DNA of 64,000 nucleotides. Origin: an uncultured Candidatus Saccharibacteria bacterium. Its GTDB lineage: Bacteria; Patescibacteriota; Saccharimonadia; Saccharimonadales; JAGQNJ01. Below, in pieces: positions 7,314-26,385 of this stretch. The stretch lies in contig CAZBGZ010000001.1 of assembly GCA_964491925.1 (NCBI GenBank), positions 192,701 to 256,700 on the forward strand. The letters run 5' to 3'. Each line of letters starts with the position of its first letter. The first letter of the stretch is position 1. Position numbers and translations under genes: made by a program. The notes beneath the pieces are model-generated. The model worked only from the letters and a program-made list of their open reading frames with translations, searched no databases and was not told where the DNA came from.

Positions 7314-8669
7314 GTGCAAGACCACCTGTGGCAAGCTGTTTTAGGGGAAATTGAGGTATCTGTGTCCCGTGCCAGCTATGTGACGTGGTTTAAAAACACC
7401 TCTCTCCTGCGTTATGACAATACGACACTCGTTATCGGTGTGCCAAATGTATTCATAAAACAGCAGCTAGAGCGTAAGTTTAATTCACTGGTCAGCGAAG
7501 TGCTCCAGAAAAATGGAGTAACCCCAAAGGTTATAGAATACAAAATACACACTTCTTCTCAGGTGCATAAAAAAGTAGATGACGAGGCAGTCATGATGAC
7601 ATCTTCGCCCAATAAAACCGTTCGAACACAAAACAGTCTCGCCCATAGTTATCGCCAGGGACTTAACGAAAAATATACTTTTGACTCATTCATTGTTGGA
7701 TCAGGAAACGATTTGGCATATGCTGCCTGCCAAGCTATCGCTGCAAACCCGGGGAAAAAGTACAATCCTTTGTTTGTTTATGGCGGTGTTGGCATTGGCA
7801 AAACTCATTTAATGCAGGCTGTTGGCAACGAGATAGCTATTCGTAATCCTTCTGCGCGAGTAGTTTATATTTCTACCGAACAATTTGTTCAAGAGTTTTT
7901 GGATGCAATTAGATACAAGAAAAATACAGATTTTGCCGGTCATTACCGATCTGCCGATGTGTTAATTATTGACGACATCCAATTCATCGCGGGCAAGGAA
8001 AAAACCCAGGAAGAGTTCTTTCATACTTTTAACGCTCTACACCAAGCTAACAAGCAAATAATAATGAGTAGCGATAAGCCTCCGAAAGACATACCTACAC
8101 TGGAAGATAGACTTCGGTCCCGTTTCGCCTGGGGAATGAGTATAGATATGCAAATACCCGATTTCGAAACTCGCTGCGCAATTGTGCAGACAAAAGCCGC
8201 CGATCAGGGGGTGACTCTTTCTGCGCCAGTCGTAGAGTTTTTGGCCAATAATATTAGGACGAATATCCGCGAGTTAGAAGGTGCCCTTAACCAACTTGTA
8301 GCTTTTAGTGAGATGCGTGGTATTAGTCCTGATTTAGCTTTAGCAAAAAGTGTCCTTGGCGCTCATCGGGCAAGGCCAAAGCATGTTTCGCCAAAACAGG
8401 TAGTGGAGCGCACGGCAAGACATTTTCAGGTTTCTGTCGAAGAGATAACAGGCCCTAAAAGAGACAAGGACATTGTTATTCCTAGGCAAGTAGCAATGTA
8501 TTTACTTCGTAGCGAGCTACACCTTAGCTTCCCTAAAATTGCAAAAGAGCTAGGCCGTAAAGACCACACTACAGCAATCCATTCGGTTGAGAAAATTGAA
8601 AAGGAATCAACGATTGATACTTCAATAAAGTCTGCAATTAGTGACATAAAGGAGCGTTTATATGCATAG
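7314..8669 (+). CDS. dnaA: chromosomal replication initiator DnaA
   Basis: GTG start after GAGGGAG. Walker A GGVGIGKTHL, LIIDDIQF, and a C-terminal DNA-binding region ...DHTTAIHSVEKI. Confidence 0.95.
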   Translation: MQDHLWQAVLGEIEVSVSRASYVTWFKNTSLLRYDNTTLVIGVPNVFIKQQLERKFNSLVSEVLQKNGVTPKVIEYKIHTSSQVHKKVDDEAVMMTSSPNKTVRTQNSLAHSYRQGLNEKYTFDSFIVGSGNDLAYAACQAIAANPGKKYNPLFVYGGVGIGKTHLMQAVGNEIAIRNPSARVVYISTEQFVQEFLDAIRYKKNTDFAGHYRSADVLIIDDIQFIAGKEKTQEEFFHTFNALHQANKQIIMSSDKPPKDIPTLEDRLRSRFAWGMSIDMQIPDFETRCAIVQTKAADQGVTLSAPVVEFLANNIRTNIRELEGALNQLVAFSEMRGISPDLALAKSVLGAHRARPKHVSPKQVVERTARHFQVSVEEITGPKRDKDIVIPRQVAMYLLRSELHLSFPKIAKELGRKDHTTAIHSVEKIEKESTIDTSIKSAISDIKERLYA

Positions 8670-8912
8670 TCTGCTTGTGGACAATACTAGTACAAACACA
8701 GTAAAAACAATGGGTACAGGTATGGTTAATACGTCATTAATAGTGGGTAAAAAATTTACAGCTTTTTGTTATACACCAACAAACCAATGGCTTATACGTG
8801 TGTTTATACGCAGGGTTAATTCGATCATTCAAACTGTTAATTCCGTGTTTTACACATCTTCCACAGTACTAATAACTAAAACTAATCTAAGTTAAAAGGA
8901 ATAACTATTATT
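8670..8912. promoter_or_regulatory. dnaA-dnaN spacer with degenerate DnaA boxes (possible second oriC half)
   Basis: AT-rich 243 bp with TGTGGACAA at 8676-8684 (1 mismatch) and TCTTCCACA at 8857-8865 (2 mismatches). Confidence 0.35.
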
Positions 8913-10007
8913 ATGGAAATATCAGTCACTCAAGAAAACCTAAACAAAGCTTTATCAACCATTGCACGCGTTGCATCAGGAAGGAGTACTCTACCAATAC
9001 TCAGTAATGTCTTGATGCAAATAGAGGACAATAGATTAAAAATATCAGCTACAAACCTAGACATAGCGATCAATAAATACATCGGTGCAAAAATTATCAG
9101 TCAAGGTTCTCTAACCGTTCCTGCAAGATTATTCCAAGACTTTATAGCAAATCTTCCTAGCGGAACAATATCTTTAAAACAAGAAGACAACAAACTGCAC
9201 GTTACTACCGATAACCACAACTCTACGATTAATGGTATGTCGGCAGAAGAATTCCCTGTAATGCCCACAATAAAAGATGGCGAATCCTGGACACTTCCAA
9301 CAACAGATCTTAAAAAGGGGTTGCATCAGGTTGCCTTCGCAGCCTCTTCTGATGAGGCTAGGCCTGTGCTAACAGGTGTTTACTTTTCTAGCGATAAAAA
9401 ACAACTCGTAATCGCAGCAACAGATAGCTATAGGTTGGCAGAAAAAAAACTAACAGTTTTAAAAAATAATGTACAACTTTTGCTTCCTGTAAGTGCCATC
9501 AATGACCTGCAAAGGATACTAGGTGATGACTCTGGCACTAAAGAGGTTGTTGTGAGTCATGATAACCAACAAGCTAGGTTTGTTGTGGGTGACACAGAAC
9601 TGATAGCTAGGCTTATAGACGGCAAATATCCAGATTATGGCCAGTTAATTCCAACTGATTTTAAAACAACAGCCACGCTAAATCGTAACGAGGTCATTAA
9701 TATAGCCAAGGTGTCTAGTCTTTTTGCTAGGGAAAGTGCAGGAAGTATAGTCTTGAGCACAAGAAAAGAAGGTTCGCTAGAAATTCGATCCGTAGCCTCT
9801 CAGGTTGGTGAAAACAAAGCTAGCGCAAAAGCGACAATATCTAGTGATGGGGAAATAACCTTAAACGCGCGCTTTTTACTGGATGGTTTGCAAGCATTTG
9901 ATGGGGAGGATATTACGATAAGTTTTAACGAAAAACTCCAGCCCCTGCTTCTTAGCGATCCCAACGATCCAAGCTATATTCATATAATAATGCCCTTGAA
10001 AAGCTAA
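8913..10007 (+). CDS. dnaN: DNA polymerase III beta sliding clamp
   Basis: 364 aa with an N-terminus typical of beta clamps (LNKALSTIARVAS..STLPILSNVLM) and dnaA-dnaN-recF synteny. Confidence 0.9.
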   Translation: MEISVTQENLNKALSTIARVASGRSTLPILSNVLMQIEDNRLKISATNLDIAINKYIGAKIISQGSLTVPARLFQDFIANLPSGTISLKQEDNKLHVTTDNHNSTINGMSAEEFPVMPTIKDGESWTLPTTDLKKGLHQVAFAASSDEARPVLTGVYFSSDKKQLVIAATDSYRLAEKKLTVLKNNVQLLLPVSAINDLQRILGDDSGTKEVVVSHDNQQARFVVGDTELIARLIDGKYPDYGQLIPTDFKTTATLNRNEVINIAKVSSLFARESAGSIVLSTRKEGSLEIRSVASQVGENKASAKATISSDGEITLNARFLLDGLQAFDGEDITISFNEKLQPLLLSDPNDPSYIHIIMPLKS

Positions 10008-10043
10008 TTAAAGCCTAAAAGAGCGGCGTTCTATAATAGGGCT

Positions 10044-11099
10044 ATGATAACGAGTCTGCGGTTACAAAATTTTCGTTCATATACCGATGTATCTTTTGAA
10101 TTCAGTGACTCGGTCAACATACTAATTGGCCCAAACGCTAGCGGCAAAACCAATGCTCTTGAGGGCCTGGTTTACGTCTGCAGAGGAGTTGGATTTAGAG
10201 GCACAGATACAGAAAATATAATGGGCAGCAAAGAATGGGCTAGAATCGACGCGCTGACTGATAAAAGCGAGACTAGGACTATAAAATTTGAAAGACAAGC
10301 CGAAACTACGAAAAAAATGATTTTAATAAACGATAAACAGACAGCCAGAATGGGCAAAACATCAGCCCTTCCCCTTGTACTTTTCGAGCCCAACTACCTA
10401 CAGCAACTAACCACCTCGCCAGAACAACGTAGAACGTTTCTGGACAACATTATTGGTGAGATCGATGACCAGTTCCAAAAAGACAAGCGAGATTATCACA
10501 GGACTTTAGCCCAACGAAACCGTTTATTAAAAAATGGAGGGGATAAAATTAACAAAACTATTTTTGCTTGGGACATAAGACTGAGTAGCCTGGGCGGTAA
10601 AATTGTCGAGAAGCGCAAACAAATAATTAATACTATAAACAAAGGCGTAAGCGAAAGTTACGCTAGTATTGCGGCAAAAAAACAGGCAATTAGTCTTGTA
10701 TATAAAGCAAATTTAGAACCCGGGGCATACGCTAGCAAAATGTTAAAGAAATTGGAAAAAGACTTGCCCCTAGATATACTCAGGGGATACACCGGTGCCG
10801 GTCCCCACAGAGATGACATTGGCATAGAAATCGATGGACACCCGATTGCTAATTTTGCCTCTCGGGGCGAAACCAGGACGACTCTCCTGGCACTGAAAAT
10901 CCAGGAAACAGACTTACTAGAAAAGAAAACCGGGAAAAAGCCTCTACTTTTGCTGGATGATGTTTATAGCGAATTGGACGGCAAAAGGCGCAAAGCCCTG
11001 ACCGCTTTCGTCAAAGATTACCAGAGCTTTATCACCACAACTGACGCCGATATAATTGCCAAAAACTTTGCTAGTGGGGTAAACACAATCTCGCTTTAG
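10044..11099 (+). CDS. recF: DNA replication/repair protein RecF
   Basis: LRLQNFRSY, Walker A GPNASGKTN and Walker B LLLLDDVYSELD. Confidence 0.9.
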   Translation: MITSLRLQNFRSYTDVSFEFSDSVNILIGPNASGKTNALEGLVYVCRGVGFRGTDTENIMGSKEWARIDALTDKSETRTIKFERQAETTKKMILINDKQTARMGKTSALPLVLFEPNYLQQLTTSPEQRRTFLDNIIGEIDDQFQKDKRDYHRTLAQRNRLLKNGGDKINKTIFAWDIRLSSLGGKIVEKRKQIINTINKGVSESYASIAAKKQAISLVYKANLEPGAYASKMLKKLEKDLPLDILRGYTGAGPHRDDIGIEIDGHPIANFASRGETRTTLLALKIQETDLLEKKTGKKPLLLLDDVYSELDGKRRKALTAFVKDYQSFITTTDADIIAKNFASGVNTISL

Positions 11100-11109
11100 C
11101 CAAGGAGCA

Positions 11110-11835
11110 CTAGTTTGCTGGCGCAATAATACTTGAATGCTCGTTATATACAATCGGATATTTCTTGATATCTATGCCTTTACTCTTCAGATAGGCAAGC
11201 GCTGCGGCTCGCCTGGTTTTTATAGCAGTTTTCTCGCTTCCCCGGTCTGAATTGCTTAGGTTGACTTCTACTTTTATAGTAACAAAATCATCACCTGCAT
11301 CATTTTGGGCAACCTCTGGAGTTATTGTGTAATCTAGCGTCGAATAAGGGGTTACATCGAGGACAGGATCCTCAAAGTTATTTTGGTCGACCTCCTCCAT
11401 TGCCTGCTGTTGTTCCTCTTTGCTCATTCGGTCGAAACGGACATAAACAGCCTTGAAGTTATAATTAAAATCTTTAATAACTTTGCCATTGGCTGCGTAT
11501 ATCTCTGGGAAGGTAAGCGAATAACTTTTTCCAATTTGCAGCGAGGTCATATCTACCGTTAGTTTACGGCCATCTATACTAAATTTTGTCCAGGTATTTT
11601 CAGGGTCGTCTTTGACGGTTTTTCTAAAATCTTGTTTAGGGTCAAGCGGCTTGTTGAAAGTTAGGGTGAAGCGTTTTGTGGTGCTGGGGATGTCACTGTT
11701 ATTCTTAGGGTCTGTACCGCTGACGTAAAAAGTAAAAACATTTCTCAGGAGTGTAAAAGCCAGAAATATAATAACAACAGCAGCAAAAACACCTGCAATT
11801 CGTTTTAGATTCTTGTATTGGTCATCATCGTACAT
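11110..11835 (-). CDS. membrane-anchored hypothetical protein, last gene of the T4SS-like minus-strand operon
   Basis: Single N-terminal TM (IAGVFAAVVIIFLAFTLL) followed by a beta-rich ectodomain. The start lies 12 nt after the upstream stop. Confidence 0.45.
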   Translation of the reverse strand: MYDDDQYKNLKRIAGVFAAVVIIFLAFTLLRNVFTFYVSGTDPKNNSDIPSTTKRFTLTFNKPLDPKQDFRKTVKDDPENTWTKFSIDGRKLTVDMTSLQIGKSYSLTFPEIYAANGKVIKDFNYNFKAVYVRFDRMSKEEQQQAMEEVDQNNFEDPVLDVTPYSTLDYTITPEVAQNDAGDDFVTIKVEVNLSNSDRGSEKTAIKTRRAAALAYLKSKGIDIKKYPIVYNEHSSIIAPAN

Positions 11836-11846
11836 TATTTGCCTTC

Positions 11847-13157
11847 TTAGTTACTTTTTGTTCCGAAGCCGGTTATCGATGAACTAGTTATGCTTTTGTC
11901 TGTCTTCCGGATACCATTAGTTTCATTTCCGCCAATAGTAGTCATGGTTGTGCCATTAACGGCTACTACTATATTAACGTGACTCATGCCATTCTTATAT
12001 ATTACAATGTCTCCCACTTTTGGCGTGTAGCCAGATCCAGCCGCGTGGTAAGAGCCATGTGCTTCGAACCAGGCTTTTACGCTAGTAACGGCAGGTATGC
12101 GCCAGCCACCACTAACGCCACTATCGAATGGGCTTTCGGCTTCTTTTAATACCCAGCTAACAAAATCTGCACACCATTGTTCCTTATTGCCGTCGGTGTA
12201 CTTAAACTCACCGTTTGATGCTTCTAGATCTTTCCCCCCATTGGCGGCAAATTCTCTTTCTGCTATTTCGGCTATTTTTGCACCCAGCTCAGTGCTAGTC
12301 GAACAGCCGGCAAGACCGGCTAGTGCCCCGTACTGTACAAAGGCTCCGTAAAAATCGTTAGCCGGGTATTCAATGCCCTCGCCGTCTCGTTTGATTTGTC
12401 CCCAGGTTCCATTTGTCCCTTGTACGGCTGGGTCTCGTTTTTCGTCAGCTTTGTTCATGACATACGGCGAGCCTTCGTAGCCTTCTGTCTCAGCATTGAA
12501 ACCAAGGTTAAAAGCCTGAGCCTTATAGGCCGAGGCTCTTCCGTTATAGCCGAAGAAAGAGTCTTTCACGCCTTTCTCGCTACCATCACCCGTTAGAGGC
12601 AGACTAGTTTTGCCCTTTAAAAATCTTGCCGCCCAAATACTTTGACGCTTGAATTCTTCTTGGGATACTGGGCCGGGTGGATAGTCACGACCGCCGTTTC
12701 CCAGCCTTTCATAGTCCTGATAAATTCCCTGGCCGTTGGACGGGTTATCAACCGCTAGGCCATGTTCGTTGTTGTGTATAACCGCCACCATTTGCCACGG
12801 TATGCCTGCGGCAGTGGCCGCTTCTTCATAAACGCCTTTATTGGCATTAATCTGGTCTTTCTGGGCTTGGCTGAATATCTCGGCACCGTTATAGGCCTTG
12901 CCTGTTTCAGAGCTGGTTGGAGCATCCGCCTGAGATCTTGCAGCCGAAGATGCATCGCCACCACCGCTACCAGAGCTATCATTGTTTGTGCAGCCAGATT
13001 CACTTTCCTCGGCCGTATCGTCTAGGTGTGGCCTGCCGACAATAATGTCGTGCAAGTCACTTTGCCTTATTCTAAATGCATAAACGGGGGTAGTAGAACT
13101 GGTTAGTACTAAAATTACGGAAATAAGCGAAAATATCTTTTTCATATTATTGACCAT
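11847..13157 (-). CDS. secreted cell-wall hydrolase with C-terminal CHAP domain (possible lysozyme/transglycosylase-like middle region)
   Basis: Signal peptide MKKIFSLISVILVLTSSTTPVYA. CHAP-type Cys (EQWCADFVSWV) and His (GDIVIYKNGMSHVNIVV). A weak SLT-like stretch, IHNNEHGL...NGQGIYQ. Confidence 0.7.
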   Translation of the reverse strand: MVNNMKKIFSLISVILVLTSSTTPVYAFRIRQSDLHDIIVGRPHLDDTAEESESGCTNNDSSGSGGGDASSAARSQADAPTSSETGKAYNGAEIFSQAQKDQINANKGVYEEAATAAGIPWQMVAVIHNNEHGLAVDNPSNGQGIYQDYERLGNGGRDYPPGPVSQEEFKRQSIWAARFLKGKTSLPLTGDGSEKGVKDSFFGYNGRASAYKAQAFNLGFNAETEGYEGSPYVMNKADEKRDPAVQGTNGTWGQIKRDGEGIEYPANDFYGAFVQYGALAGLAGCSTSTELGAKIAEIAEREFAANGGKDLEASNGEFKYTDGNKEQWCADFVSWVLKEAESPFDSGVSGGWRIPAVTSVKAWFEAHGSYHAAGSGYTPKVGDIVIYKNGMSHVNIVVAVNGTTMTTIGGNETNGIRKTDKSITSSSITGFGTKSN

Positions 13158-16095
13158 TTACCGACCAGTGCCACGACTCGCTTGGCAAATTTTTGAATCC
13201 ATAAGTTGCGGCATTTTTTGACAGCCAGTTGAAACATGTCGAGCCACGTCCACAATTTCCAAAATCGATTGCCAATCCCTTTTCGTGGTTTGATGTGCCC
13301 GGTTTTGCAGTAGGGGGCGAGCAATCACTAGATTTAGAGTTTTGCCAGTCTGGGCAGTTTTGCTTGCGCAATAATATCTGCTTCGCAGAATCACGCCAGC
13401 ATGAACCAGTTAGGATTACCCCATCTCTCCTGGCGGCTTCCATCATGTCATTCGCTTTCTCGGCAATTGATGTATGGCAGCCTGTTGTCAAGCCTTTTAC
13501 TGGGGCTATTTGGCTCTCGTCAACTGGACCAGTTGGTAATTGGGACGCTAGCGCACCACTGCCACCACTGCCATCTCCAGTATCAGGATCTTGAATCTCT
13601 TTCAGATGATCAAGGCTGTTATCGTACATTTTAGAAACTCTATACCGGAAAACTAAATCACCATATTTAGGGTTCCTCGTGCCTAGGTTTTTGGGTGAGC
13701 ATTTACCCTTGTCGCTAATAACATCGCCTTTCTCGTTGCGAACTATGCGTTCCTCTGAGATTAGAGTCCCAAAGGAGTCTTCAAAGCAAGTTTTATACTC
13801 TTCCTCAATATCGTCTTTTTTCCCGCTTTCTTCTAATATTTTGCTGTTTTCGAGCGGACTGTATGAGGTGTTATTTTTTATAAGATCATTTTCCGCCATG
13901 CTGTAGCCTATCTGGACGATTCCATAATTTTGTTGAGCGCCTGTTAGTGCCTGCGCAGAGTTATTGGTGCTAGCAAATGCGAAGAATGGGTTGGACAAAG
14001 AACTAGAAGCCATGGTCGCAAGTCTCTGTACAAAACCCGGTATTCCGTTATCATCGCCCAAGAAGGCAGAGAAAGTTGTGGACGTGGTCGTTAGTAAAGA
14101 CCGAGGATTTTGAGGCGACAGATATCTTTCAAAAGCGGTTTTCTTTGCTTCTTGGCTCTGCAAATCATTGACGGTTAGTCTGACATCATCGACAACTTCG
14201 TTGCTGGTCATCGGGCGGCCGTAAAAGACTTGTTGTTGTTCTTGCCCGTTTTGCAGGTTGCCACCCATGTCTGCTTGCACGGCAAGTTCTTCTCCGCGGG
14301 AGCCTCCGTTGCTTTGTGCGTGAACGCCCATTTCCACCAGGCTTTTCGCCAGAAGTGTAGCGCCAGCAATCGCACCTGCCTGCAAGGCTATTATCCCCCC
14401 TCTTTTTAAGGCTCCTTTGACACTCATCTTGGCTGTAATTTCTCCTATCCGATTAACGACAAATACTTTCAACCCTTGCTCACTTACTGTGGACGAACCC
14501 CCAGAGAAAAACCCTGCCGTTAGCTCCGCAATCGTAACTGCCGCTGCGACCCTTAGGTCGGTGATCTTTGGGCAGATAAAATCAGCATATGCGCTGGCTG
14601 TGCGACCCAAAGGGTTGTCTCCTAGCAGTAGGGTCAATGCCGTGAACTCGCCACTACCACCTGAATGGGGGCTTTTGACCTCGTCCTCAGTATTGACTGT
14701 TTGTCCAGCAGCTCTCCTTAGGGGGACTGATCTGGCTACATTATGGCGCCACCTTCTGCTTACGGCAGCGGTGGCCTGGGTTGTAAGTTCGCCTTTTTCT
14801 AGCTGTTCAGCTGGGCCAACCAACGACTGGTAACTTTTTTGTAGTTGAGCATTTTCAGAATCTATAGCGGGCTTAGCTTTGTGGATAGAACCTTCGTAAA
14901 CAATGCATAAAGGTACGGCAATAGCGTAGATTAAAGATGCTGTAGAAAGCGCCCTGGCGCTCGTTGTCGGCTTTAGGTCATTTTCTAGGTTCTCGGTTAT
15001 TGCTTTCGGGACCGTGCCGTCGCCCTCTCTCCATTCTTTAGCGCACTTGGGATCATCCAGACAAGCATGGAGTTCACTTTCTAGCCTGCCTTGTGCTTCA
15101 GCTATATCTTTTATACTACTGCGAGTGGTATCTTTCCAGGTTCTTTCTATGTTTTCCCTCTGTAGCGCCAGATCTATTTGTTCGGCTTTAAGCCCCCGAT
15201 ATTCTCTCAGCCTTTTCGACAGGCCTAGCTGTTTCAGCCCCAGATCTTCGTAAACCGTTTTCATTACAGAGCTTCGGACCAAGGTATTGTTGCGTCTCAT
15301 GGCAACCTCTAGCTCCCCGTCCATCGCAGCAGTAAATTTTACCCTCTCCCTGTAATTGTCACGGGTAAAGAATCCTCTAATAGTCGGCTTGTTGTATGGT
15401 ATTCTTTCGCCATTAACTACTACCGCTGTAAGTCTTGGCCGTCTTAATAGGCGACCCTCATCATACTCATATGTCAAAATGCCTTCTGATTTCAGGTTTT
15501 CGAATACTTTTTGTGGCCTATACTGGTCAAGTTTGCCCCAATAGTTCTCGCGAAGGTTCGAGTATTTTTGCTTCATGCTATTGAAAAGCCCATCGTCAGC
15601 AGTGTCCAAGGCGATTTTTTGCCCATCTATCTGACTTTGGCTTATTCGGAATTGCCGAGCTGACCTAGAGAATTGCCAACCCGTTATGTTTTCTGCCAAA
15701 TGAGGAATCATCAGGCTAGCTATGAACAGTATCAAGATCGCTAAAGCCAATAACGCACCGATCCCAAAACCAATCATTAGTTTGTTTTTGCCGCCAGCGA
15801 TGTTTTTCATTCCTGACAATCTTGTTTTTAGGCTCTTAGCGCCGGGGCTTGCCGGGCTGGGGTTGCCTTTATAAAATCCGCCGCCCGCACCTTTATCTTC
15901 CGATTCTCCCCCGGTCGCAGTCTTTAATCTTTCGGCTTCGCGCTTTTCTGCCAAATCTTGGTCCGCACCTGCTCTTGCACGGGTTTCCACATCACTTTGT
16001 TCAGAGGGGCTCATACCTGTTATGGCCTCTAGCTCGTCGTTGCCAGGCAAAGTTCCTAGGCTGGTTTTCTTGTTTTGGTCATCGTAGACGGGCAT
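13147..16095 (-). CDS. 982-aa membrane protein with C-terminal M15 (VanY/LD-carboxypeptidase-like) peptidase domain
   Basis: TM at about residues 110-140 and a large extracytoplasmic region. The C-terminus has GTSNHEKGLAIDF and ESWHWS (zinc-peptidase M15 signature). The stop overlaps the next start by 11 nt. Confidence 0.7.
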   Translation of the reverse strand: MPVYDDQNKKTSLGTLPGNDELEAITGMSPSEQSDVETRARAGADQDLAEKREAERLKTATGGESEDKGAGGGFYKGNPSPASPGAKSLKTRLSGMKNIAGGKNKLMIGFGIGALLALAILILFIASLMIPHLAENITGWQFSRSARQFRISQSQIDGQKIALDTADDGLFNSMKQKYSNLRENYWGKLDQYRPQKVFENLKSEGILTYEYDEGRLLRRPRLTAVVVNGERIPYNKPTIRGFFTRDNYRERVKFTAAMDGELEVAMRRNNTLVRSSVMKTVYEDLGLKQLGLSKRLREYRGLKAEQIDLALQRENIERTWKDTTRSSIKDIAEAQGRLESELHACLDDPKCAKEWREGDGTVPKAITENLENDLKPTTSARALSTASLIYAIAVPLCIVYEGSIHKAKPAIDSENAQLQKSYQSLVGPAEQLEKGELTTQATAAVSRRWRHNVARSVPLRRAAGQTVNTEDEVKSPHSGGSGEFTALTLLLGDNPLGRTASAYADFICPKITDLRVAAAVTIAELTAGFFSGGSSTVSEQGLKVFVVNRIGEITAKMSVKGALKRGGIIALQAGAIAGATLLAKSLVEMGVHAQSNGGSRGEELAVQADMGGNLQNGQEQQQVFYGRPMTSNEVVDDVRLTVNDLQSQEAKKTAFERYLSPQNPRSLLTTTSTTFSAFLGDDNGIPGFVQRLATMASSSLSNPFFAFASTNNSAQALTGAQQNYGIVQIGYSMAENDLIKNNTSYSPLENSKILEESGKKDDIEEEYKTCFEDSFGTLISEERIVRNEKGDVISDKGKCSPKNLGTRNPKYGDLVFRYRVSKMYDNSLDHLKEIQDPDTGDGSGGSGALASQLPTGPVDESQIAPVKGLTTGCHTSIAEKANDMMEAARRDGVILTGSCWRDSAKQILLRKQNCPDWQNSKSSDCSPPTAKPGTSNHEKGLAIDFGNCGRGSTCFNWLSKNAATYGFKNLPSESWHWSVNGQ

Positions 16096-16136
16096 ATTGG
16101 TTGGCCTTTTTTGTATTCAGCATGACTTATTACTAA

Positions 16137-18062
16137 TTATAACCCAGGCATTAGCTGGTTATTAAGATCAATTGTTCCTTGGGGGTTATCCATTACTCCC
16201 TGTCTGTTGATTTGGTCTACCTGCGCCGGATTTGTAGTTATTAGGCCAGTTTCTGTTGGGCTGGCTATAATTTGAATGTGGACATGATTTTGCCCGGCAA
16301 AAAATAGTCCTTGGCCAACGGGAAATTGAGTTAGTCTTTTCTTTTCTTCGCTTGTCAGTTTGAACACATCAGCCAGCACGTCGACTGCAGCCGGAGATTG
16401 TTTCAAAAGTAGCTGCATAGAGGCGTTAGCTACTATTGCTCGGCCCATCCTGGAGCCAATAAAGTCTTCAACATCCTGAGAAATTGTGGTGATGCCCAGG
16501 TTATATTTTCGGGCGCGCTTTGCAAGTGAAAATAAGAAATTGGCAGAGTCTTCATATTTCATCAACTGCCAGGCTTCGTCGATTATTAACATTCGCCTTC
16601 GTTGATCAGATTTTGTCCTGTTCCATATGTAGTTTAGAACGATGTACATAGCTACTGGCCGTAGCTCGTCCTCTAGGTCGCGAATATTGAATACCACCAT
16701 TTGATTATTGATATCAATATTTGATTGCTGGCTGAAAATCCCTGCAAACGTCCCGGTAGTATATTTTCGTAATCGTTGGGCTAACTGTGGGCCGGTGCCA
16801 CCCATATGAAGTAGGGTGTCATACAAGTCAGCGACGGTTGGCGGAACAGAGTTATGGGTCAAGGGGTCGTTGGTGATGCCTGCTTTTGCATATGTTTCGA
16901 TTAACGCAGAATCTAGGTCAGATTCTTCAACGGGGGAAAGCGCTGGGCCGATAGAGCCTCCACCGCCCATCGAGGCTACCATTTGCGCCTGGGCTCCACC
17001 CATCATCAGTCGCAACAATCCGTGCAGTGTAATGAGGTTGCTGCGAAGAGCGTTGTCTGCTTCCTCTGTGTCGACAACTTTTGGCAAATCGAAAGGATTT
17101 ATTCTTGTGGCAGAGTTCAGACTGAGGCGTACATACGCACCACCGACGGCTTCTGCCATGCGCTGATATTCATTTTCGGGGTCAATAATGACGACTTCGG
17201 CGCCAAACATCATGCTTCTTAGTGCTTCTAGTTTTACGGCGAATGATTTTCCGGCACCAGACTTTGCAAAAACTACTGCATTGCCATTCTCTAGAGTGAA
17301 TCGGTCAAAAATAACTAGACCCGAGTTATGCATGTTGATTCCATACAAAACACCCTCGTCCTGGCTGAGGTCCGCGCTAGTAAACGGGAAGCTAGTAGAC
17401 AGCGCCCCGGTGCTCATGTTGCGCCGTATTTGTAATTGGTCAGTAAATTGCGGGACTGTACTGGCTAGTCCCTGCTCTTGCTGTGATGTTGCGGGCTTAG
17501 AGTAGACCAACTGCTGGCCTAGCAACGATTCTACTTTATGAGTCACAAAGTCTAGTTCGTCCAAGCTATTAGCGTACAGGGTAAAATAGAATCCAAAACG
17601 GAAGAATCGTTCTTCGCCTACCTGTAGCTTGTCCCGCATTTCCTCGGCATCCACAATTGTAGCTTGCTTGCCTGGGTCACGTACACGGCCCTTTTCACTA
17701 TCTATCTGCAGCCCGGCTTCTAGTTGCCCGACTTTTTTACGCAAGTTCTCTAACACTACTTGGCTTTCTACCGGGTAGATGAACATGGACAAGTCGATGA
17801 TCTCGTCGATGTTAATCAGGCTACTCAACCAGCCAGTGTATAGACTGCGCGGGTAACCAAAAACGTAGAAGTTGCGAGCAAACCTAGTGCCGATCTGAAA
17901 AAACGTACTGTTCAGCTCGATAGAGCTAGGAGCAATAAAATCGCGCAGTGCTGTAACGCCTTTTTGAAAGGCAACATGCACCTCGGCTGCTTCTCGGCGG
18001 CGCTGGGCTTCTGCTAGCTCTACAGGGTCGGTCGTGGCTTTTTTGCCTCCAAATAAACCCAT
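16137..18062 (-). CDS. virB4: VirB4/TrsE-family type IV secretion ATPase
   Basis: Walker A FAKSGAGKSF, Walker B RRRMLIIDEAWQLM, and an N-terminal VirB4-type domain (YVFGYPRSLYTGWLSSLI..DLSMFIYP). Confidence 0.85.
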   Translation of the reverse strand: MGLFGGKKATTDPVELAEAQRRREAAEVHVAFQKGVTALRDFIAPSSIELNSTFFQIGTRFARNFYVFGYPRSLYTGWLSSLINIDEIIDLSMFIYPVESQVVLENLRKKVGQLEAGLQIDSEKGRVRDPGKQATIVDAEEMRDKLQVGEERFFRFGFYFTLYANSLDELDFVTHKVESLLGQQLVYSKPATSQQEQGLASTVPQFTDQLQIRRNMSTGALSTSFPFTSADLSQDEGVLYGINMHNSGLVIFDRFTLENGNAVVFAKSGAGKSFAVKLEALRSMMFGAEVVIIDPENEYQRMAEAVGGAYVRLSLNSATRINPFDLPKVVDTEEADNALRSNLITLHGLLRLMMGGAQAQMVASMGGGGSIGPALSPVEESDLDSALIETYAKAGITNDPLTHNSVPPTVADLYDTLLHMGGTGPQLAQRLRKYTTGTFAGIFSQQSNIDINNQMVVFNIRDLEDELRPVAMYIVLNYIWNRTKSDQRRRMLIIDEAWQLMKYEDSANFLFSLAKRARKYNLGITTISQDVEDFIGSRMGRAIVANASMQLLLKQSPAAVDVLADVFKLTSEEKKRLTQFPVGQGLFFAGQNHVHIQIIASPTETGLITTNPAQVDQINRQGVMDNPQGTIDLNNQLMPGL

Positions 18063-18063
18063 A

Positions 18064-18933
18064 TTACTGTAAATCCTTGTCTAGGTTTGGTTGTCGGGCC
18101 TGTCCTTGGCCCTTCATTACTACTGTTGCTGTCAGGTCATTAAAGCTTTTCAACTGTTGTCTGGTAGCGGTGTCGGGGTTATAAAAGTCGTAGTATAGTT
18201 CAATTAACTCCTGGGTATCTAATGGAACGCCCTGGACACTACATTGCATCAACCCGCCCAAAACAGACTGGACCCGGTTACGAAGTTCTACCTTGGCGTC
18301 TTCCAGTTCTTTTTCGTTAACCGTCACAACTTGGTGCTCTTTTTTCCCGAAAATGCTAGTTAGCCCACCGAAGAAATTTTTACTTTGGGTCAAGGCTTTT
18401 TGGACATCAACCTGTGCAAAAAACGGTATAACTATGTAAAAATTCTTATCCATAATGTTGGTTTGTGTCGATATGTCACTAATATAGTTGATGTAATCTT
18501 CCATCATTAGAGCTAATAACATGTTGTCGTGTTCGGAACGGATTTTGTCTAGTTTTTCAATATAAGGGCGTATGTCAACCTTTTGAGACCGTACGAATAT
18601 TTGGATTGGGAAATACAAAGAGTTCAAAAAACCCTGGTATCCAGATTCTACCCCCTCGCGTTCTTGGGGACTCATTAGGTCAAAGTTAATACTGCGAAGC
18701 ATCACCACTGAACGGAAAGAGCCGTCGTTCATTATTACAATTCCGTCTCTTATTTCGGCGATTTGTAACATGTTTTGAGTACTAGTAGGGTTAACTTTTG
18801 GTTTTGGGGCGTTCTGCCCGCTTTGATGTGGTTGTGCGGGGGCAGGTTGTTTGCCAATAACCGCACTGGCAGGAACCGGCGTAGGCATTCCAGTTTGAGG
18901 TTGGCCGGGTTGTTGATTATCAGAAGGATTCAT
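18064..18933 (-). CDS. T4SS-associated hypothetical protein (P/Q-rich N-terminus)
   Basis: The stop lies 1 nt before the virB4 start. It has no TM segment and I recognise no motif. Confidence 0.45.
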   Translation of the reverse strand: MNPSDNQQPGQPQTGMPTPVPASAVIGKQPAPAQPHQSGQNAPKPKVNPTSTQNMLQIAEIRDGIVIMNDGSFRSVVMLRSINFDLMSPQEREGVESGYQGFLNSLYFPIQIFVRSQKVDIRPYIEKLDKIRSEHDNMLLALMMEDYINYISDISTQTNIMDKNFYIVIPFFAQVDVQKALTQSKNFFGGLTSIFGKKEHQVVTVNEKELEDAKVELRNRVQSVLGGLMQCSVQGVPLDTQELIELYYDFYNPDTATRQQLKSFNDLTATVVMKGQGQARQPNLDKDLQ

Positions 18934-18979
18934 TTATTTTTTGCCCACCAATGGCTTTTAGAAAGACGAACCGCCAAGA

Positions 18980-19960
18980 CTAATGTAGAGATATGGTTAC
19001 CTCTCCGTCGTGCTCATCTACATTTTCTGACGATGAACGGACATTTAGCTCGGTTTTATTGTCTTGTTTGACAGGATTTATTATATCAGGCGTAGGTGTT
19101 TGTGTCATTGGCTGATTGGTGGGTGTTTGTACGGGGGATGCGGGCATGGGGGTTTGTGTGGGCGGAGTATAAGTAGCGGTAGGGGCAGTTTGGGCCTGTG
19201 CAACTGGGGCAACGGGTGTCTGGACATCTGCTAATGGCCCCATAGACGGTGTCGCAGTATAAACAATTGGCACGGCTTGTTGACTAGGCGGTTGCGCTGT
19301 TGCTACTTTTTGCTCCTCGGCAATATTTTGCATTTCTTGTAATACTGCGGTTCTGTGTGTTTGTTGGTTCTCGGCCACCATAGCGTTAATGGTTTGTGCC
19401 AGTGGTGTCGTGGCAGCGTCCAGCAGGTCTTCACCTGGCTTGACACTGGTTATATCTGTTTGGGGGATAGCCTGGATATCCAACAACCTATCAGATGATT
19501 CGCTTTGCAAGGGGTTAGCATAAACATTAGTTGACACATTTTTTATTGCCCAGCCACGAGTATCCATGGTATTAGCCAGGGCCTTTAGCCGGCTCCTGGC
19601 TTCTTCTTTGCCAAATTCTTTTGTCAGCTGTTTTTTCTCAACTTTTGGTGCTGTAACCCTGACCATTTCTTCAATTCCATCCTGATTCCAAATCCGCTTT
19701 CGGGGGAAAATAAAAAATTTTATTTTAGCCAGCATCCACACTTCTGATGATTGGTCGTGGCCAAATGGCGCTGCTAGCATGGCAAAGAAAATAAGTGGTG
19801 GCAAGAACGGTATAGCCAAATACCACCCAACAACAGCCAAGCGGAATGCTACAAAACCAATAACAATCACAATAATGGCGTAAATAAACTGCCTCAGGGT
19901 CAACGGCCCCAGCAGCTTGTCCTCTGCCTCTATGTCTTGTAATACTTTATATTGCGCCAT
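18980..19960 (-). CDS. PrgI/VirB3-like small-TM T4SS protein with long P/T/Q-rich C-terminal region
   Basis: N-terminus MAQYKVLQDIEAEDKLLGPLTLRQFIYAIIVIVIGF followed by two TM helices, a pattern I associate with PrgI-family proteins of monoderm T4SS. Confidence 0.5.
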   Translation of the reverse strand: MAQYKVLQDIEAEDKLLGPLTLRQFIYAIIVIVIGFVAFRLAVVGWYLAIPFLPPLIFFAMLAAPFGHDQSSEVWMLAKIKFFIFPRKRIWNQDGIEEMVRVTAPKVEKKQLTKEFGKEEARSRLKALANTMDTRGWAIKNVSTNVYANPLQSESSDRLLDIQAIPQTDITSVKPGEDLLDAATTPLAQTINAMVAENQQTHRTAVLQEMQNIAEEQKVATAQPPSQQAVPIVYTATPSMGPLADVQTPVAPVAQAQTAPTATYTPPTQTPMPASPVQTPTNQPMTQTPTPDIINPVKQDNKTELNVRSSSENVDEHDGEVTISLH

Positions 19961-19973
19961 AATTTATATATTA

Positions 19974-23192: not shown

Positions 23193-23774
23193 ATGAATGC
23201 AGAGAAGAAAATGAATCCTCAAATACAAAACCAAAACGACAAAAATTCTGATTATGACTTTATAGTCAATCAGCCAGGCGAATTCGATAAACCCAAGCTT
23301 GATCGCAAGGTTATCACTATTATAATACTAGTAATTATAATAGTGATAACCTTGGCTGTGGCTGCATTATTGAGTGCAAAGCGCAAAGTTGCCCCAATAC
23401 AAAATTCTAATACACCTTCGTTGGCAAAAACGAGTAATGGTAGCTCGACGGTGGCAGATTCAGTAGTAAAACCATTTTTAGTTGATGCCAGTAAAAATCC
23501 CCAGGCTGCATATGATAAATATATCGAACCAGGCATCGACGATAGTTTTACAAAGGAGGCTTTTATGAGCGAATCAATGCCATTCTTGAATAAACTAAAA
23601 CTGGGCGAATGTGTTCTCGGTGCAGCCAAAGAAGTGGATACATCAGGAGCTAATATCACGACTTTAGTTTGCCCCACAAAAAGTACTGGAGCAAGAATCG
23701 GCCTGTCTTTTATTACAGTTGGCCTAAGCACAACTACCAAAATTGTTAACTTTAGTTTTGTGGAGCCTGCATGA
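23193..23774 (+). CDS. membrane-anchored hypothetical protein, first gene of the plus-strand T4SS operon
   Basis: The track ORF starts at 23166 (TTG). ATG 23193 follows GAAAGG. Single TM (VITIIILVIIIVITLAVAALL). The stop overlaps the next start (ATGA). Confidence 0.45.
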   Translation: MNAEKKMNPQIQNQNDKNSDYDFIVNQPGEFDKPKLDRKVITIIILVIIIVITLAVAALLSAKRKVAPIQNSNTPSLAKTSNGSSTVADSVVKPFLVDASKNPQAAYDKYIEPGIDDSFTKEAFMSESMPFLNKLKLGECVLGAAKEVDTSGANITTLVCPTKSTGARIGLSFITVGLSTTTKIVNFSFVEPA

Positions 23775-24418
23775 AAAAATCTATTCTATCTTTCCCAGCA
23801 TTCATGATGCTTATAGTTGTTGTTGCCGGTTTTGTGGTACCCAAAGTAGCGTATGCCGCCGCCCCAGTATGCTATAAAAGGTCGGGCAGTCCACCTTCGG
23901 TAAAAGAGAAGCCTTGCGATCGTCTCAAATCACAAATAGAGGGGCTACTCGGGCACCCGATGAAGGATGACTTTTGCTATTTATTAGGCTCGACCGTTAT
24001 CGAAAAACCTATTGATAGCCCAAAATGCGATGAATTTAAAGATAAAGCTGCGAATGGAGGTGGGGGTGGTGGTGCTGGTGGAACCCTGAATGCTTTTTCA
24101 GCCAACACTAGACCAGTGACGGCCGGCGACACCTGTGGCGACCCGGGGGTTGATATTAGCATCAACATTGGCTGTCAGGGGCAGAATAACCCCATCGTTG
24201 ACATGACTTTTGCATTTATCCGCTTTTTGTCAGTTGGCGTAGGTGTAGTGGCAGTTGGTTCAATTGTTTTGGGCGGCGTCCAATACACATCTTCTGCGGG
24301 TGACCCGAAAAAAACAGCCGCCGCCATTAGTCGTATATCCAATACATTAATCGCCCTTCTCATTTACTTCTTGATTTTTGCTATACTAAACTGGCTCGTA
24401 CCATCAGGAATATTCTAA
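23771..24418 (+). CDS. VirB2/TrbC-like pilin paralog 1 (long form with Cys-rich, Gly-run N-domain)
   Basis: Signal peptide ...KVAYA, then several Cys and GGGGGGAGG. The C-terminus has TM1, the loop YTSSAGDPKKTAAAISRISN, then TM2, as in the five downstream paralogs. Confidence 0.6.
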   Translation: MKKSILSFPAFMMLIVVVAGFVVPKVAYAAAPVCYKRSGSPPSVKEKPCDRLKSQIEGLLGHPMKDDFCYLLGSTVIEKPIDSPKCDEFKDKAANGGGGGGAGGTLNAFSANTRPVTAGDTCGDPGVDISINIGCQGQNNPIVDMTFAFIRFLSVGVGVVAVGSIVLGGVQYTSSAGDPKKTAAAISRISNTLIALLIYFLIFAILNWLVPSGIF

Positions 24419-24802
24419 ATGAACGTATTGACCTATTTATACTCTCAATTCGCAGCGGCCTGCCAACCAAAAGGTAGCTTTTTTGGGTTCCCTACTTGGT
24501 ACAAATATTTGGATGGACAAAACGTTACCGATGGAGCCACAAACACCACTACTTGTTCGCCAATAATCCATGGCATAAATGATGTTTGGTTGATAGTTTT
24601 GGCTATTATAGATCTTCTGCTCAGGGCTGCGATATTGGCTGCTGTAGGTTTTGTTCTTGCCGGTGGGGTGAAATTTATGGTTAGCCAGGGGCAACCAGAT
24701 AAGATTAAATCTGCGCTAACTACTTTGGTTAACGCTCTGATTGGCCTAGCTATTGCAGTGGCCGCAGCAACACTCGTATCTTATGTAGCGGGGAAATTCT
24801 AG
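24419..24802 (+). CDS. VirB2/TrbC-like pilin paralog 2
   Basis: Cys pair, TM1, the loop MVSQGQPDKIKSALTTLVN, then TM2. The start abuts the previous stop. Confidence 0.6.
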   Translation: MNVLTYLYSQFAAACQPKGSFFGFPTWYKYLDGQNVTDGATNTTTCSPIIHGINDVWLIVLAIIDLLLRAAILAAVGFVLAGGVKFMVSQGQPDKIKSALTTLVNALIGLAIAVAAATLVSYVAGKF

Positions 24803-25105
24803 ATGATTTTTCATAATATATATAATTTGGCAGTCTCAAATTGTGCTGGCGCTTCTTGCCAAACCAATTTACCAGAAGTTGCAGCTGACGCTAGCACTGT
24901 ATCGACAATATTGTCGGTTGTATTTGGTATTATCGGGGCCACATCCGTAATACTAATAATATTTGCTGGCATGTTATTTATTACTGGCGGCGATGACCCG
25001 CAAAAAATTAAGACTGCCCGCAATACAATTATTTGGGCATTACTGGGCTTGGGGATTGCTTTATCGGCTGAGGCTATTGTATATATTTTCTTGAGGCAAC
25101 TATAA
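24803..25105 (+). CDS. VirB2/TrbC-like pilin paralog 3
   Basis: CAGASC, TM1, the loop FITGGDDPQKIKTARNTII, then TM2. The start abuts the previous stop. Confidence 0.6.
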   Translation: MIFHNIYNLAVSNCAGASCQTNLPEVAADASTVSTILSVVFGIIGATSVILIIFAGMLFITGGDDPQKIKTARNTIIWALLGLGIALSAEAIVYIFLRQL

Positions 25106-25106
25106 G

Positions 25107-25502
25107 ATGATAAAAAGATTTTTTTACATACTAACGCTTGCCATGTTAACTTTTTTTGCTATCCCGTCCACATCAGTTTTGGCGGTCGATATAATTAGCC
25201 CCGCCTGCCAAAATATTACTACCGGAGATGTTCCTGCTGCTTGCCGCGACAACACTAAGCCTGGTGATGATTTTCTTTTTGGCCCAGATGGAGTTATCAC
25301 AAAGATTATCAATATATTCTCAGTAATATTGGGAGTTGCTGCGGTTATTGTGATCATGATATCTGCAATAAGGTTTATTTCTTCCAATGGCGACCCCGCT
25401 ACAATTTCTTCCGCTAGAAGCGCCATAATCTTTGCCATAATCGGCCTGGTAGTTGCTGCAGTATCCCAGATTGTTGTTCAGCTTGTGTTAAGTAAAATAT
25501 GA
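25107..25502 (+). CDS. VirB2/TrbC-like pilin paralog 4
   Basis: Signal peptide, Cys pair (PACQ..AACR), TM1, the loop FISSNGDPATISSARSAII, then TM2. Confidence 0.65.
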   Translation: MIKRFFYILTLAMLTFFAIPSTSVLAVDIISPACQNITTGDVPAACRDNTKPGDDFLFGPDGVITKIINIFSVILGVAAVIVIMISAIRFISSNGDPATISSARSAIIFAIIGLVVAAVSQIVVQLVLSKI

Positions 25503-25517
25503 GGTTAATCTAGATTT

Positions 25518-25916
25518 ATGGTTAAAACAATAATAAATAAATACAAATATTTGTTGGCTGCAATTTTAGCTTCCCTGTTTGTGCTGGCGATGACGATGCC
25601 GGCCCAGGCATTATTCGAGAGTTCTATTGACGAAGCCTGCAAGGGAGCGACACTAGATGGAACTAGTAACTGCCCAGGGGGTCAAGCAGAAACCCAAATC
25701 AATTCGACTATCGAACAGGGTTTTATGCTGTTCTCGACGGTAATTGGTGTTATCGCAGTAGTAATGATTATTATTGCTGGTATTAAATATGTGACATCAA
25801 GTGGCGACCCCGCAAGTGTTAACAGCGCAAAAAACACTATGCTATATGCTGTAATTGGGCTAGTGATTGCGGCATTAGCTCAGGTTATTGTGCGGTTTGT
25901 GTTGACTCAAACATAG
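25518..25916 (+). CDS. VirB2/TrbC-like pilin paralog 5
   Basis: Signal peptide ...PAQA, Cys pair (EACK..SNCP), TM1, the loop YVTSSGDPASVNSAKNTML, then TM2 ending AQVIVRFVL. Confidence 0.65.
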   Translation: MVKTIINKYKYLLAAILASLFVLAMTMPAQALFESSIDEACKGATLDGTSNCPGGQAETQINSTIEQGFMLFSTVIGVIAVVMIIIAGIKYVTSSGDPASVNSAKNTMLYAVIGLVIAALAQVIVRFVLTQT

Positions 25917-25974
25917 TTCTTGCGGTAATTCGCTCCCTGTGGTAAATTTAACTTAAGAAAACGAAAGGAAAATA

Positions 25975-26385
25975 ATGAAAAAAATACTAAAAAAACTAAT
26001 CGCCAGCGCCAGTGCAGCCGCCCTACTATTGGCCCCAGCAGCGCTAGTTGCATCGCCCGCATTCGCACAGCCAAATATTGACGAAGGACTATGCCAGGGC
26101 GCGAACTTGCAAGTTGGTGAGACTAACTGTAACGGTGATGACGCTCAGGACACAGTTAACAGCATCATAACTGATGTCATTAACATCTTTTCAATTGTCG
26201 TCGGTGTTGTATCAGTCATAATGATTATTGTTGGTGGTCTTAAGTACATTACATCTGGTGGTGATTCAGGAAACGTCAGTGGTGCCAAGAACACGATCTT
26301 ATATGCGATTATTGGACTAGTTATCGTTGCTCTTGCCCAGGTTATAGTGCGATTCGTACTCGGAAAAGCTGTCTCAGCCTCATAG
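25975..26385 (+). CDS. VirB2/TrbC-like pilin paralog 6
   Basis: Signal peptide ...SPAFA, Cys pair (GLCQ..TNCN), TM1, the loop YITSGGDSGNVSGAKNTIL, then TM2 ending AQVIVRFVL. It has its own RBS (GAAAGGAAAA). Confidence 0.65.
   Translation: MKKILKKLIASASAAALLLAPAALVASPAFAQPNIDEGLCQGANLQVGETNCNGDDAQDTVNSIITDVINIFSIVVGVVSVIMIIVGGLKYITSGGDSGNVSGAKNTILYAIIGLVIVALAQVIVRFVLGKAVSAS

Follow-up and report, generated by a model that had tools for sequence, protein, structure and literature searches.

Two adjacent genes in a type IV secretion system (T4SS) operon of an uncultured Candidatus Saccharibacteria bacterium, encoding proteins of 982 and 436 amino acids (aa), probably form a split VirB1-type wall-processing module of a monoderm T4SS that resembles the FATA class of mating-pair-formation systems (MPF-FATA). 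The genes lie on the minus strand of a 64,000-nucleotide (nt) stretch of contig CAZBGZ010000001.1 (assembly GCA_964491925.1, positions 192,701 to 256,700; hereafter the window), where both open reading frames (ORFs) were found as set out in a preliminary description made from the sequence without database searches. The 436-aa protein would be exported by the Sec pathway, its lysozyme/lytic-transglycosylase-like domain cutting glycan strands and its CHAP domain cutting stem peptides or the amide bond. One or more N-terminal helices would anchor the 982-aa protein in the membrane, and its core would bear at the outer end an M15 domain that trims or cleaves stem peptides. Together, the two proteins would open or remodel peptidoglycan locally, allowing the T4SS channel and VirB2-like pilus to cross the epibiont's own wall and probably also to reach into the wall of the host.

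Attachment to a thick-walled host bacterium is obligatory for Saccharibacteria and other Patescibacteria, and to our knowledge theirs is the only T4SS that has been reported to be essential for the organism carrying it. For studying how this system crosses the wall, the hydrolase pair offers the most direct point of entry.

Three predicted catalytic domains on two polypeptides

Three different chemistries had been proposed for the pair, and the catalytic residues and domain matches bear this out: a Glu-dependent lysozyme/transglycosylase-like domain, a Cys-His CHAP domain and a Zn-dependent M15 domain. The last of these was expected at the end of the 982-aa protein from the motifs SNHEKGLAIDF and ESWHWS, and was found there. 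Residues 874–968 match the Pfam VanY model PF02557 (E = 4.9e-10; 39.7 bits against a gathering cut-off of 25), and the same region matches the VanY-type carboxypeptidases 5hnm/5zhf among PDB sequences at 2e-5 with the single sequence and at 6.6e-13 with the family profile. The fold of the domain matches that of BaLdcB (4jid/4mph; Foldseek probability 1.0), and the best PHROG match of the region is phrog_16823, a phage tape-measure family (3.5e-14). The motifs S935-N-H937-E-K-G940-L-A-I-D944 and E973-S-W-H976 supply a putative active site, with H937, D944 and H976 as zinc ligands, E973 as the catalytic residue, and R901. The three ligands are invariant in all 39 members of the core family (see below) that were aligned with an M15 tail (39/39), and the position of E973 is Glu or Asp in 34 of the 39.

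In the 436-aa protein, residues 322–411 match the CHAP model PF05257 (E = 1.9e-11; 44.7 bits against a cut-off of 26), and the domain shares its fold with the endolysins Ly7917 and PlyGRCS by Foldseek. The Cys of QWCADFVSWV and the His of SHVNIVV, on which a C-terminal CHAP domain had originally been proposed, correspond to C329 and H393; both are invariant in 44 homologues, and N411 is at least 90% conserved. The two checks that had been recommended for these domains, Pfam annotation and alignment of the catalytic residues, therefore gave VanY and CHAP matches above the gathering scores and an M15 His/Asp/His set and CHAP Cys/His pair that are present and invariant in homologues. The recommended annotation of an SLT domain did not succeed, no SLT or lysozyme model from Pfam matching residues 88–285.

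The weak lysozyme/transglycosylase-like stretch that had been noticed in this region is nevertheless supported by the order of its motifs and by a predicted fold that resembles lytic transglycosylases, even though nothing in Pfam or NCBIfam matches it. Residues 88–285 are the best-conserved part of the 436-aa family. H128, E131, N138, P139, G144, Q147, N205 and G206 are invariant across the 44-homologue alignment and follow the order of the SLT motifs ES, GLMQ and AYNxG: the putative catalytic E131 ends a helix formed by residues 121–132 and is followed by the conserved motifs N138-P, G144-I-Y-Q147 and Y204-N205-G206. An AlphaFold model of the protein has a predicted local distance difference test score (pLDDT) of 83 overall and above 90 in the lysozyme-like domain, which matches MltF, MltE and the T7 gp16 transglycosylase in Foldseek with probabilities of 0.9–1.0, but with E-values of only 0.02–0.3. 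Alignment by hhalign to the Pfam-positive SLT domain of a related locus (L004) gave E = 0.015 and placed the motifs on its ES...NP...YGIPQ; the family profile reached MltF among PDB sequences at E = 0.7 only. Because the invariant motifs, the fold matches of the model and the hhalign result agree, we accept residues 88–285 as a predicted lysozyme-like, SLT/GH23-like glycosidase domain with a conserved putative catalytic Glu, one that is not distinguishable among lytic transglycosylases, muramidases and glucosaminidases. The domain identities and catalytic residues of the pair are read directly from the protein sequences; enzymatic activity and the bonds cut are predicted from them.

More than 295 homologues of the 436-aa protein were found, and all those with a source name come from Saccharibacteria/Saccharimonadales. 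Some family members add an SGNH or Exo_endo_phos domain, or have a C39-like domain in place of CHAP. Two non-catalytic cysteines, C56 in the disordered N-terminal linker and C285 in the interdomain linker, are also invariant in the 44 homologues; they may form a disulfide, and such a bond would tether the N-terminal segment across both domains.

Export signals are present on both proteins. The N-terminus of the 436-aa protein is a hydrophobic, signal-peptide-like segment without a lipobox Cys. The single unambiguous transmembrane helix of the 982-aa protein (TM1) has a Kyte-Doolittle hydrophobicity of 2.95 (family mean 2.81), and the flanking residues 85–104 contain on average in the family 5.6 Lys/Arg against 0.2 Asp/Glu. 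Three more helices (residues 383–406, 512–535 and 566–590) are moderately hydrophobic, so that the topology beyond TM1 is ambiguous; the N-terminus is predicted to be inside and the M15 domain is expected outside. The signal peptide and the strong N-in helix fit an extracytoplasmic site for both proteins, and the activities are, as first suggested, split between a membrane-anchored 982-aa protein and a Sec-secreted 436-aa protein.

Linkage of the two genes to virB4

The two genes had been placed inside a T4SS operon, and genes for VirB4, TrsD-like, PrgI, VirB6-like and six pilin proteins were indeed identified around them. They were compared with their counterparts in 12 related loci from GTDB species genomes, all of them Saccharibacteria/Saccharimonadales; the closest named genome is a Ca. 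Saccharibacteria metagenome-assembled genome with 88–99% protein identity. As far as the contigs reach, the order of the 1016-aa VirB6-like gene, PrgI, TrsD, VirB4, the gene for the 982-aa core, one or more hydrolases, and then recF and dnaN on the opposite strand is kept in 12 of 12 loci. The core gene lies directly downstream of virB4 in every one of them, and this linkage, which in the window is on the same strand, is in keeping with a VirB1-type wall hydrolase. From this position, which is an observation of gene order, we infer that the two proteins are associated with the T4SS.

Spacing within the operon is tight. The gap between the virB4 stop and the 982-aa start is 41 nt, and that between the 436-aa gene and the following 241-aa gene is 11 nt. 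An 11-nt overlap between the stop of the 982-aa gene and the start of the 436-aa gene had been reported. This holds for the longest 436-aa ORF, whose ATG at 13157 precedes the TAA of the 982-aa gene (13149–13147); it does not hold if translation begins at the in-frame ATG at 13145 (Met5, MKKIFSL...), a more typical signal-peptide start that leaves a 1-nt spacer and no overlap. In the other loci, the core gene and the next gene also abut or overlap in every case, with spacings of −19 to +7 nt by longest-ORF calls. Translational coupling of the two genes is plausible from this spacing.

Between Saccharibacteria species, sequence identity follows a steep gradient across the operon. Among loci L002–L012, it is 79–85% for VirB4, 60–74% for the TrsD-like protein, 42–48% for PrgI, and about 27–34% for the VirB6-like protein and 27–34% for the core; the terminal hydrolase gives way to non-homologous sets of domains. 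Eight of the nine downstream genes scanned with Pfam combine recognised wall-hydrolase domains, usually a glycosidase with a peptidase or amidase. The sets are SGNH + phage-tail lysozyme + C39-like; GH3 + SLT; SGNH + GH73 + M23; SGNH + lysozyme + Amidase_2; GH73 + CHAP; GH73 + C39-like; lysozyme + SLT_2; and lysozyme + C39-like. When hidden Markov models of the lytic-transglycosylase-like and CHAP domains of the 436-aa protein were run against the downstream genes of 10 other loci, the CHAP domain of L007 was the sole match.

A conserved core with exchangeable C-terminal enzymes

The M15 domain had been described as fused to about 850 aa of unrecognised sequence, and no family or fold relative was found for this core. 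It has no Pfam or NCBIfam match, and family-profile searches against PDB sequences, Pfam, NCBIfam and PHROGs gave matches confined to the M15 domain. The structure prediction suggested earlier for residues 1–850 was made with AlphaFold2 and is almost all-alpha (pLDDT 75.6; predicted template modelling score 0.70); Foldseek against PDB and BFVD found no match outside the M15 part, and hence no fold similarity of the core to viral proteins. Four cysteines (C397, C508, C770 and C799) are invariant in an alignment of 67 homologues and may form disulfides; the same alignment shows conservation of a YAIAxPxC helix and, to a very high degree, of the region at residues 720–835. The N-terminal segment is mostly disordered, with pLDDT below 50 across much of residues 1–110. 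Y4 and D5 are invariant in a 7-sequence alignment; in the 67-sequence alignment D5 alone is nearly invariant, and the consensus start is still Y-D. This Y-D(D/E) motif (residues 1–5; 16084–16095, minus strand) precedes the disordered, probably cytoplasmic segment, and the ATPase or some other partner in the cytoplasm could dock there.

When 1.84 billion representative proteins were searched with a profile, 375 clusters (50% identity) fell within the core family at E ≤ 1e-30, and most of these align at profile positions of about 30–845. By distribution and gene order, the core of about 750 aa is a widespread, lineage-specific predicted T4SS component with a conserved position after virB4. An identity as VirB6 or extended VirB6, judged by the presence of at least five transmembrane helices and by similarity to the TrbL/VirB6 or PrgH models, was rejected because the protein has too few transmembrane helices (one strong and at most three weak, with no TrbL/VirB6 or PrgH match) and because a separate polytopic 1016-aa gene fills this role.

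The C-terminal enzyme varies across the family. Of the 154 best core-family members, 81 have a tail, and the other 73 stop no more than 40 residues past the core. An M15/VanY tail is present in 40 members, including the 982-aa protein. A second tail cluster linked by BLAST has 18 members, those scanned with Pfam containing M23 alone, SGNH + M23, Exo_endo_phos + M23, Exo_endo_phos + CHAP, or Exo_endo_phos with a phosphoesterase or tyrosine phosphatase; smaller groups carry Peptidase_M74, Peptidase_M14, CHAP-like, GH16 or beta-lactamase-like domains, and several have no assignment. A neighbour-joining tree built from 153 cores requires 52 or more changes of tail class (mean 71.6, minimum 65 when the labels were shuffled), so that gain, loss or exchange of cassettes has taken place repeatedly. 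Four proteins of 1563–1710 aa (P0155, P0201, P0219 and P0225) have very long tails with one or two Exo_endo_phos domains together with Y_phosphatase3, phospholipase-C-type phosphoesterase, CHAP or M23 domains, activities that extend beyond peptidoglycan cleavage.

No description of cassette swapping on this core family was found in the searchable literature, and it is the part of these results most worth pursuing; the type of cassette may vary with the wall chemistry of the host and with host range. Such swapping across the family fits, indirectly, with adaptation to host walls. We propose only tentatively, as a possibility that is doubtful on balance, that the core of about 750 aa is a Saccharibacteria-wide T4SS part displaying an exchangeable enzymatic head (M15, M23, M74, M14, CHAP, GH16, nuclease/phosphatase-type or SGNH) at the epibiont-host contact. 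Together with the domain-shuffled hydrolase, it would constitute a polymorphic drilling and feeding toolkit that tracks host wall chemistry and helps to set host range.

Target wall and alternative functions

Several observations weigh against a split VirB1-type module. Residues 88–285 of the 436-aa protein give no Pfam or NCBIfam match at E < 0.1, and a tblastn search of 72,556 plasmids returned no sequence match between the lysozyme-like domain and plasmid-borne VirB1 hydrolases. Among solved structures, the M15 domain is most closely related to VanY and LdcB carboxypeptidases, which trim stem peptides and leave the wall unopened. A C-terminal enzyme is absent from about half of the core-family members, so that M15 activity is dispensable for the job of the core. 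Finally, the counterparts of both genes in Ca. Southlakia epibionticum ML1, SEML1_0006 and SEML1_0007, are essential by transposon sequencing (Tn-seq; Wang et al., 2023, Cell; PMC10633639), but essentiality was measured in co-culture only, and roles at the own wall and at the host are not separated by it.

The plasmid search matched only the CHAP part of the 436-aa protein, and these matches were to generic CHAP domains, the top one (Tsukamurella) lying outside a conjugation context. The closest have 34–39% identity and come mostly from Actinomycetota (Tsukamurella, Nocardia, Streptomyces and Nonomuraea), the phylum of the known Saccharibacteria hosts; this is a weak hint that the CHAP domain may be of actinobacterial origin. 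Direct descent of the 436-aa protein from a known plasmid VirB1 received no support from the search.

The wall that the enzymes act on is likewise a matter of prediction. A rather unlikely alternative to the VirB1-type module is that they are directed at the host: the core would present an exchangeable head at the interface and, with the secreted hydrolase, drill through or digest the thick actinobacterial host wall and its attached polymers, letting the pilus or channel in or releasing nutrients, with the cassette matched to host wall chemistry. The high polymorphism of the C-terminal cassette among the 154 members, with its 52 or more changes on the tree of 153 cores, and the downstream hydrolase gene that keeps its position while its domains shuffle, are both in line with this, as is the fall in conservation from cytoplasmic to exposed components (VirB4 79–85% against core 27–34% in L002–L012). 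The GH16, nuclease/phosphatase-type and phosphoesterase cassettes are non-peptidoglycan enzymes and are hard to explain by remodelling of the own wall, and the best match of the M15 region is to the tape-measure family phrog_16823, a device for penetrating host walls. Domain shuffling, however, is also typical of the VirB1-type hydrolases of Gram-positive conjugative elements (PrgK, TraG, CwlT and TcpG), and some of the tail-less members may be truncated metagenomic gene calls.

It is improbable that the M15 domain is non-lytic, that is, a DD- or LD-carboxypeptidase that trims terminal stem-peptide residues near the T4SS as VanY and LdcB do. In that event, its effect may be to reduce cross-linking in the vicinity or to mark or shield the wall, and only two of the three chemistries would cut the sacculus. 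The best sequence and fold matches are indeed carboxypeptidases (VanY 5zhf/5hnm, LdcB 4ox5/4jid/4mph, and YodJ), and the L-Ala-D-Glu endopeptidase Ply500 (2vo9) is a far weaker match (2.7e-4 with the family profile). The identity of the domain to solved structures is about 20%, however, a level too low for specificity within the family to be read, and the PHROG match is to the M15 domain of a tape-measure protein. Because sister proteins carry true endopeptidase families (M23, M74 and CHAP) at the same position, the tail position can be argued to hold a cutting activity.

That the two genes encode housekeeping autolysins used in growth and division, and merely lie beside T4SS genes near the origin, is very improbable: the region next to dnaA-dnaN-recF is rich in housekeeping genes, and essentiality in ML1 would be expected of division autolysins too, but chance co-location is unlikely because the linkage of virB4 to the core, and then to a hydrolase, is kept in 12 of 12 loci, the genes are tightly packed on the T4SS strand opposite to recF and dnaN, SLT plus CHAP is the canonical monoderm VirB1 architecture (PMC12102498), and rapid domain turnover is atypical of division autolysins.

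Other features of the locus

Features of the locus are collected in Table 1. The T4SS operon (11110–23024, minus strand) adjoins dnaA-dnaN-recF, that is, the replication origin region, and a T4SS locus next to these genes is a general feature of Patescibacteria (Quinonero-Coronel et al., 2025; PMC12102498).

Table 1. Positions in the window of the hydrolase genes, their domains and the surrounding genes
Feature	Position	Strand	Evidence
436-aa gene, secreted two-domain wall hydrolase	11847..13157	-	ORF call
Sec-type signal peptide, residues 1–27 (…TPVYA/F)	13077..13157	-	sequence, hydrophobicity; cleavage site judged by eye
Lysozyme-like (SLT/GH23-like) domain, residues ~88–285 (predicted)	12303..12896	-	invariant columns, model, Foldseek, hhalign
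CHAP cysteine amidase/peptidase domain, residues ~290–436	11850..12290	-	Pfam, alignment, Foldseek, PHROG search
Overlap of 982-aa stop and 436-aa first ATG, 11 nt	13147..13157	-	sequence
982-aa membrane protein gene: conserved Saccharibacteria T4SS-linked core with C-terminal M15 peptidase	13147..16095	-	ORF call
N-terminal segment, residues 1–104, probably cytoplasmic, mostly disordered; YDD start motif; K/R-rich stretch before TM1	15784..16095	-	pLDDT, alignments
Only unambiguous transmembrane helix, residues 108–130	15706..15774	-	Kyte-Doolittle
Almost all-alpha core, residues 131–850	13546..15705	-	AlphaFold2, profile searches
VanY/M15 (LAS-type) zinc peptidase domain, residues 874–982	13150..13476	-	Pfam, PDB sequences, Foldseek, conserved residues
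Last operon gene: 241-aa single-transmembrane protein with immunoglobulin (Ig)-like (Big_5) ectodomain	11110..11835	-	Pfam, hydrophobicity
virB4 ATPase, 641 aa, directly upstream of 982-aa gene	16137..18062	-	NF045971, E = 1.7e-106
TrsD-like, 289 aa	18064..18933	-	NCBIfam search
PrgI/VirB3-like, 326 aa	18980..19960	-	PF12666
Polytopic VirB6-like, 1016 aa, 7–8 hydrophobic helices	19974..23024	-	weak match to CD3337/EF1877 mobilome membrane family
Six paralogous VirB2-type pilin genes, divergent from operon	23771..26385	+	PF18895 T4SS_pilin, E 7e-6 to 3e-15
dnaA, dnaN, recF	7314..11099	+	ORF calls

VirB4 function appears to be split in this operon: the match of the 289-aa TrsD-like protein to the CD1110-type VirB4 model covers the N-terminal ~120 positions of the model, and the stop of the TrsD-like gene sits 1 nt from the start of the 641-aa VirB4 ATPase. 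The 241-aa gene at the end of the operon occupies the position of SEML1_0004/0005 in ML1 and may encode another extracellular T4SS part or an adhesin. The array of six pilin genes corresponds to an essential pilin array reported in ML1.

Promoter and terminator scans gave consensus-level matches only. One of these, a promoter-like TTAATA-18-TATAAT at 16136–16165 (minus strand), is located at the virB4 stop codon and in the 41-nt spacer before the 982-aa gene; it is a consensus match only and could provide the hydrolase sub-operon with a transcription start of its own. No Rfam family was found in positions 6000–28000. Plus-strand ORFs of 60–138 aa within 11847–16095 were without support and were treated as spurious.

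Comparison with known systems

The closest counterpart is the corresponding locus of ML1, whose gene order is dnaN, recF, SEML1_0004/0005 (Ig-like/PEGA), SEML1_0006, SEML1_0007, SEML1_0008 (VirB4), 0009 and 0010 (PrgI) (PMC10633639). SEML1_0006 is annotated with two Lysozyme-like domains and a Cysteine proteinase domain (PMC10633639, Tables S1/S2). SEML1_0007 is 3342 nt long, has a Hedgehog/DD-peptidase domain at residues 951–1105 and overlaps SEML1_0006 by 7 nt (PMC10633639); SEML1_0004/0005 are likewise essential by Tn-seq (PMC10633639), and the SEML1_0006/0007 pair was noted again in 2025 (Quinonero-Coronel; PMC12102498). The layout is the same in both organisms: dnaN and recF are followed on the opposite strand by Ig-like exported proteins, a secreted multi-domain hydrolase, a large protein with a DD-peptidase (M15-fold) domain that in ML1 exceeds 1000 aa, VirB4, a TrsD-like protein and PrgI, and the hydrolase genes overlap, by 7 nt in ML1 and 11 nt here. 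They differ in that SEML1_0006 (643 aa) has two lysozyme-like domains (GH73-like and phage-tail-lysozyme) and a cysteine protease, against one SLT-like domain and CHAP here, and in that SEML1_0007 has 1113 aa against 982 aa. Equivalence to SEML1_0006/0007 is drawn from synteny and domain annotation. Because the layout, annotation and essentiality in ML1 have already been published, the hydrolase pair is a further example of a described arrangement and mostly confirms the annotation of a cultivated relative; what is added is the conserved carrier and its swappable enzymes.

Monoderm VirB1 proteins typically combine SLT and CHAP (PMC12102498). TraG of pIP501, TrsG of pGO1 and PrgK of pCF10 have, like the 436-aa protein, an N-terminal SLT-type glycosidase followed by a C-terminal CHAP domain, are encoded within an MPF-FATA T4SS operon and are needed for crossing the thick wall (PMC12102498). 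They are membrane-anchored single polypeptides, PrgK with an additional LytM domain, whereas in the present pair a cleavable signal peptide is predicted for the SLT-like/CHAP protein, and a separate, much larger membrane protein carries the metallopeptidase. CwlT of ICEBs1 and TcpG of pCW3 are also two-domain hydrolases, with a glycosidase and a peptidase, that serve a Gram-positive conjugation machine, but they belong to other families (a muramidase or glucosaminidase with NlpC/P60) and have no large helical membrane protein with a swappable enzyme.

The M15 domain itself resembles VanY and LdcB in its above-threshold Pfam VanY match, its SxHxxGxAxD and ExxH motifs and its fold match to BaLdcB. 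Those enzymes are small stand-alone carboxypeptidases of wall maturation or vancomycin resistance, whereas here the domain forms the C-terminal 110 aa of a 982-aa T4SS-linked protein. A long helical carrier that ends in or contains a wall-penetrating M15, M23 or lytic transglycosylase domain is also found among phage tape-measure and internal virion proteins (phrog_16823; T7 gp16); there, only the enzymatic domains match, and the resemblance is one of architecture and not of homology. An exchangeable toolkit of the kind tentatively proposed above would be similar in logic to polymorphic toxin systems and phage tail lysins, but built into a T4SS.

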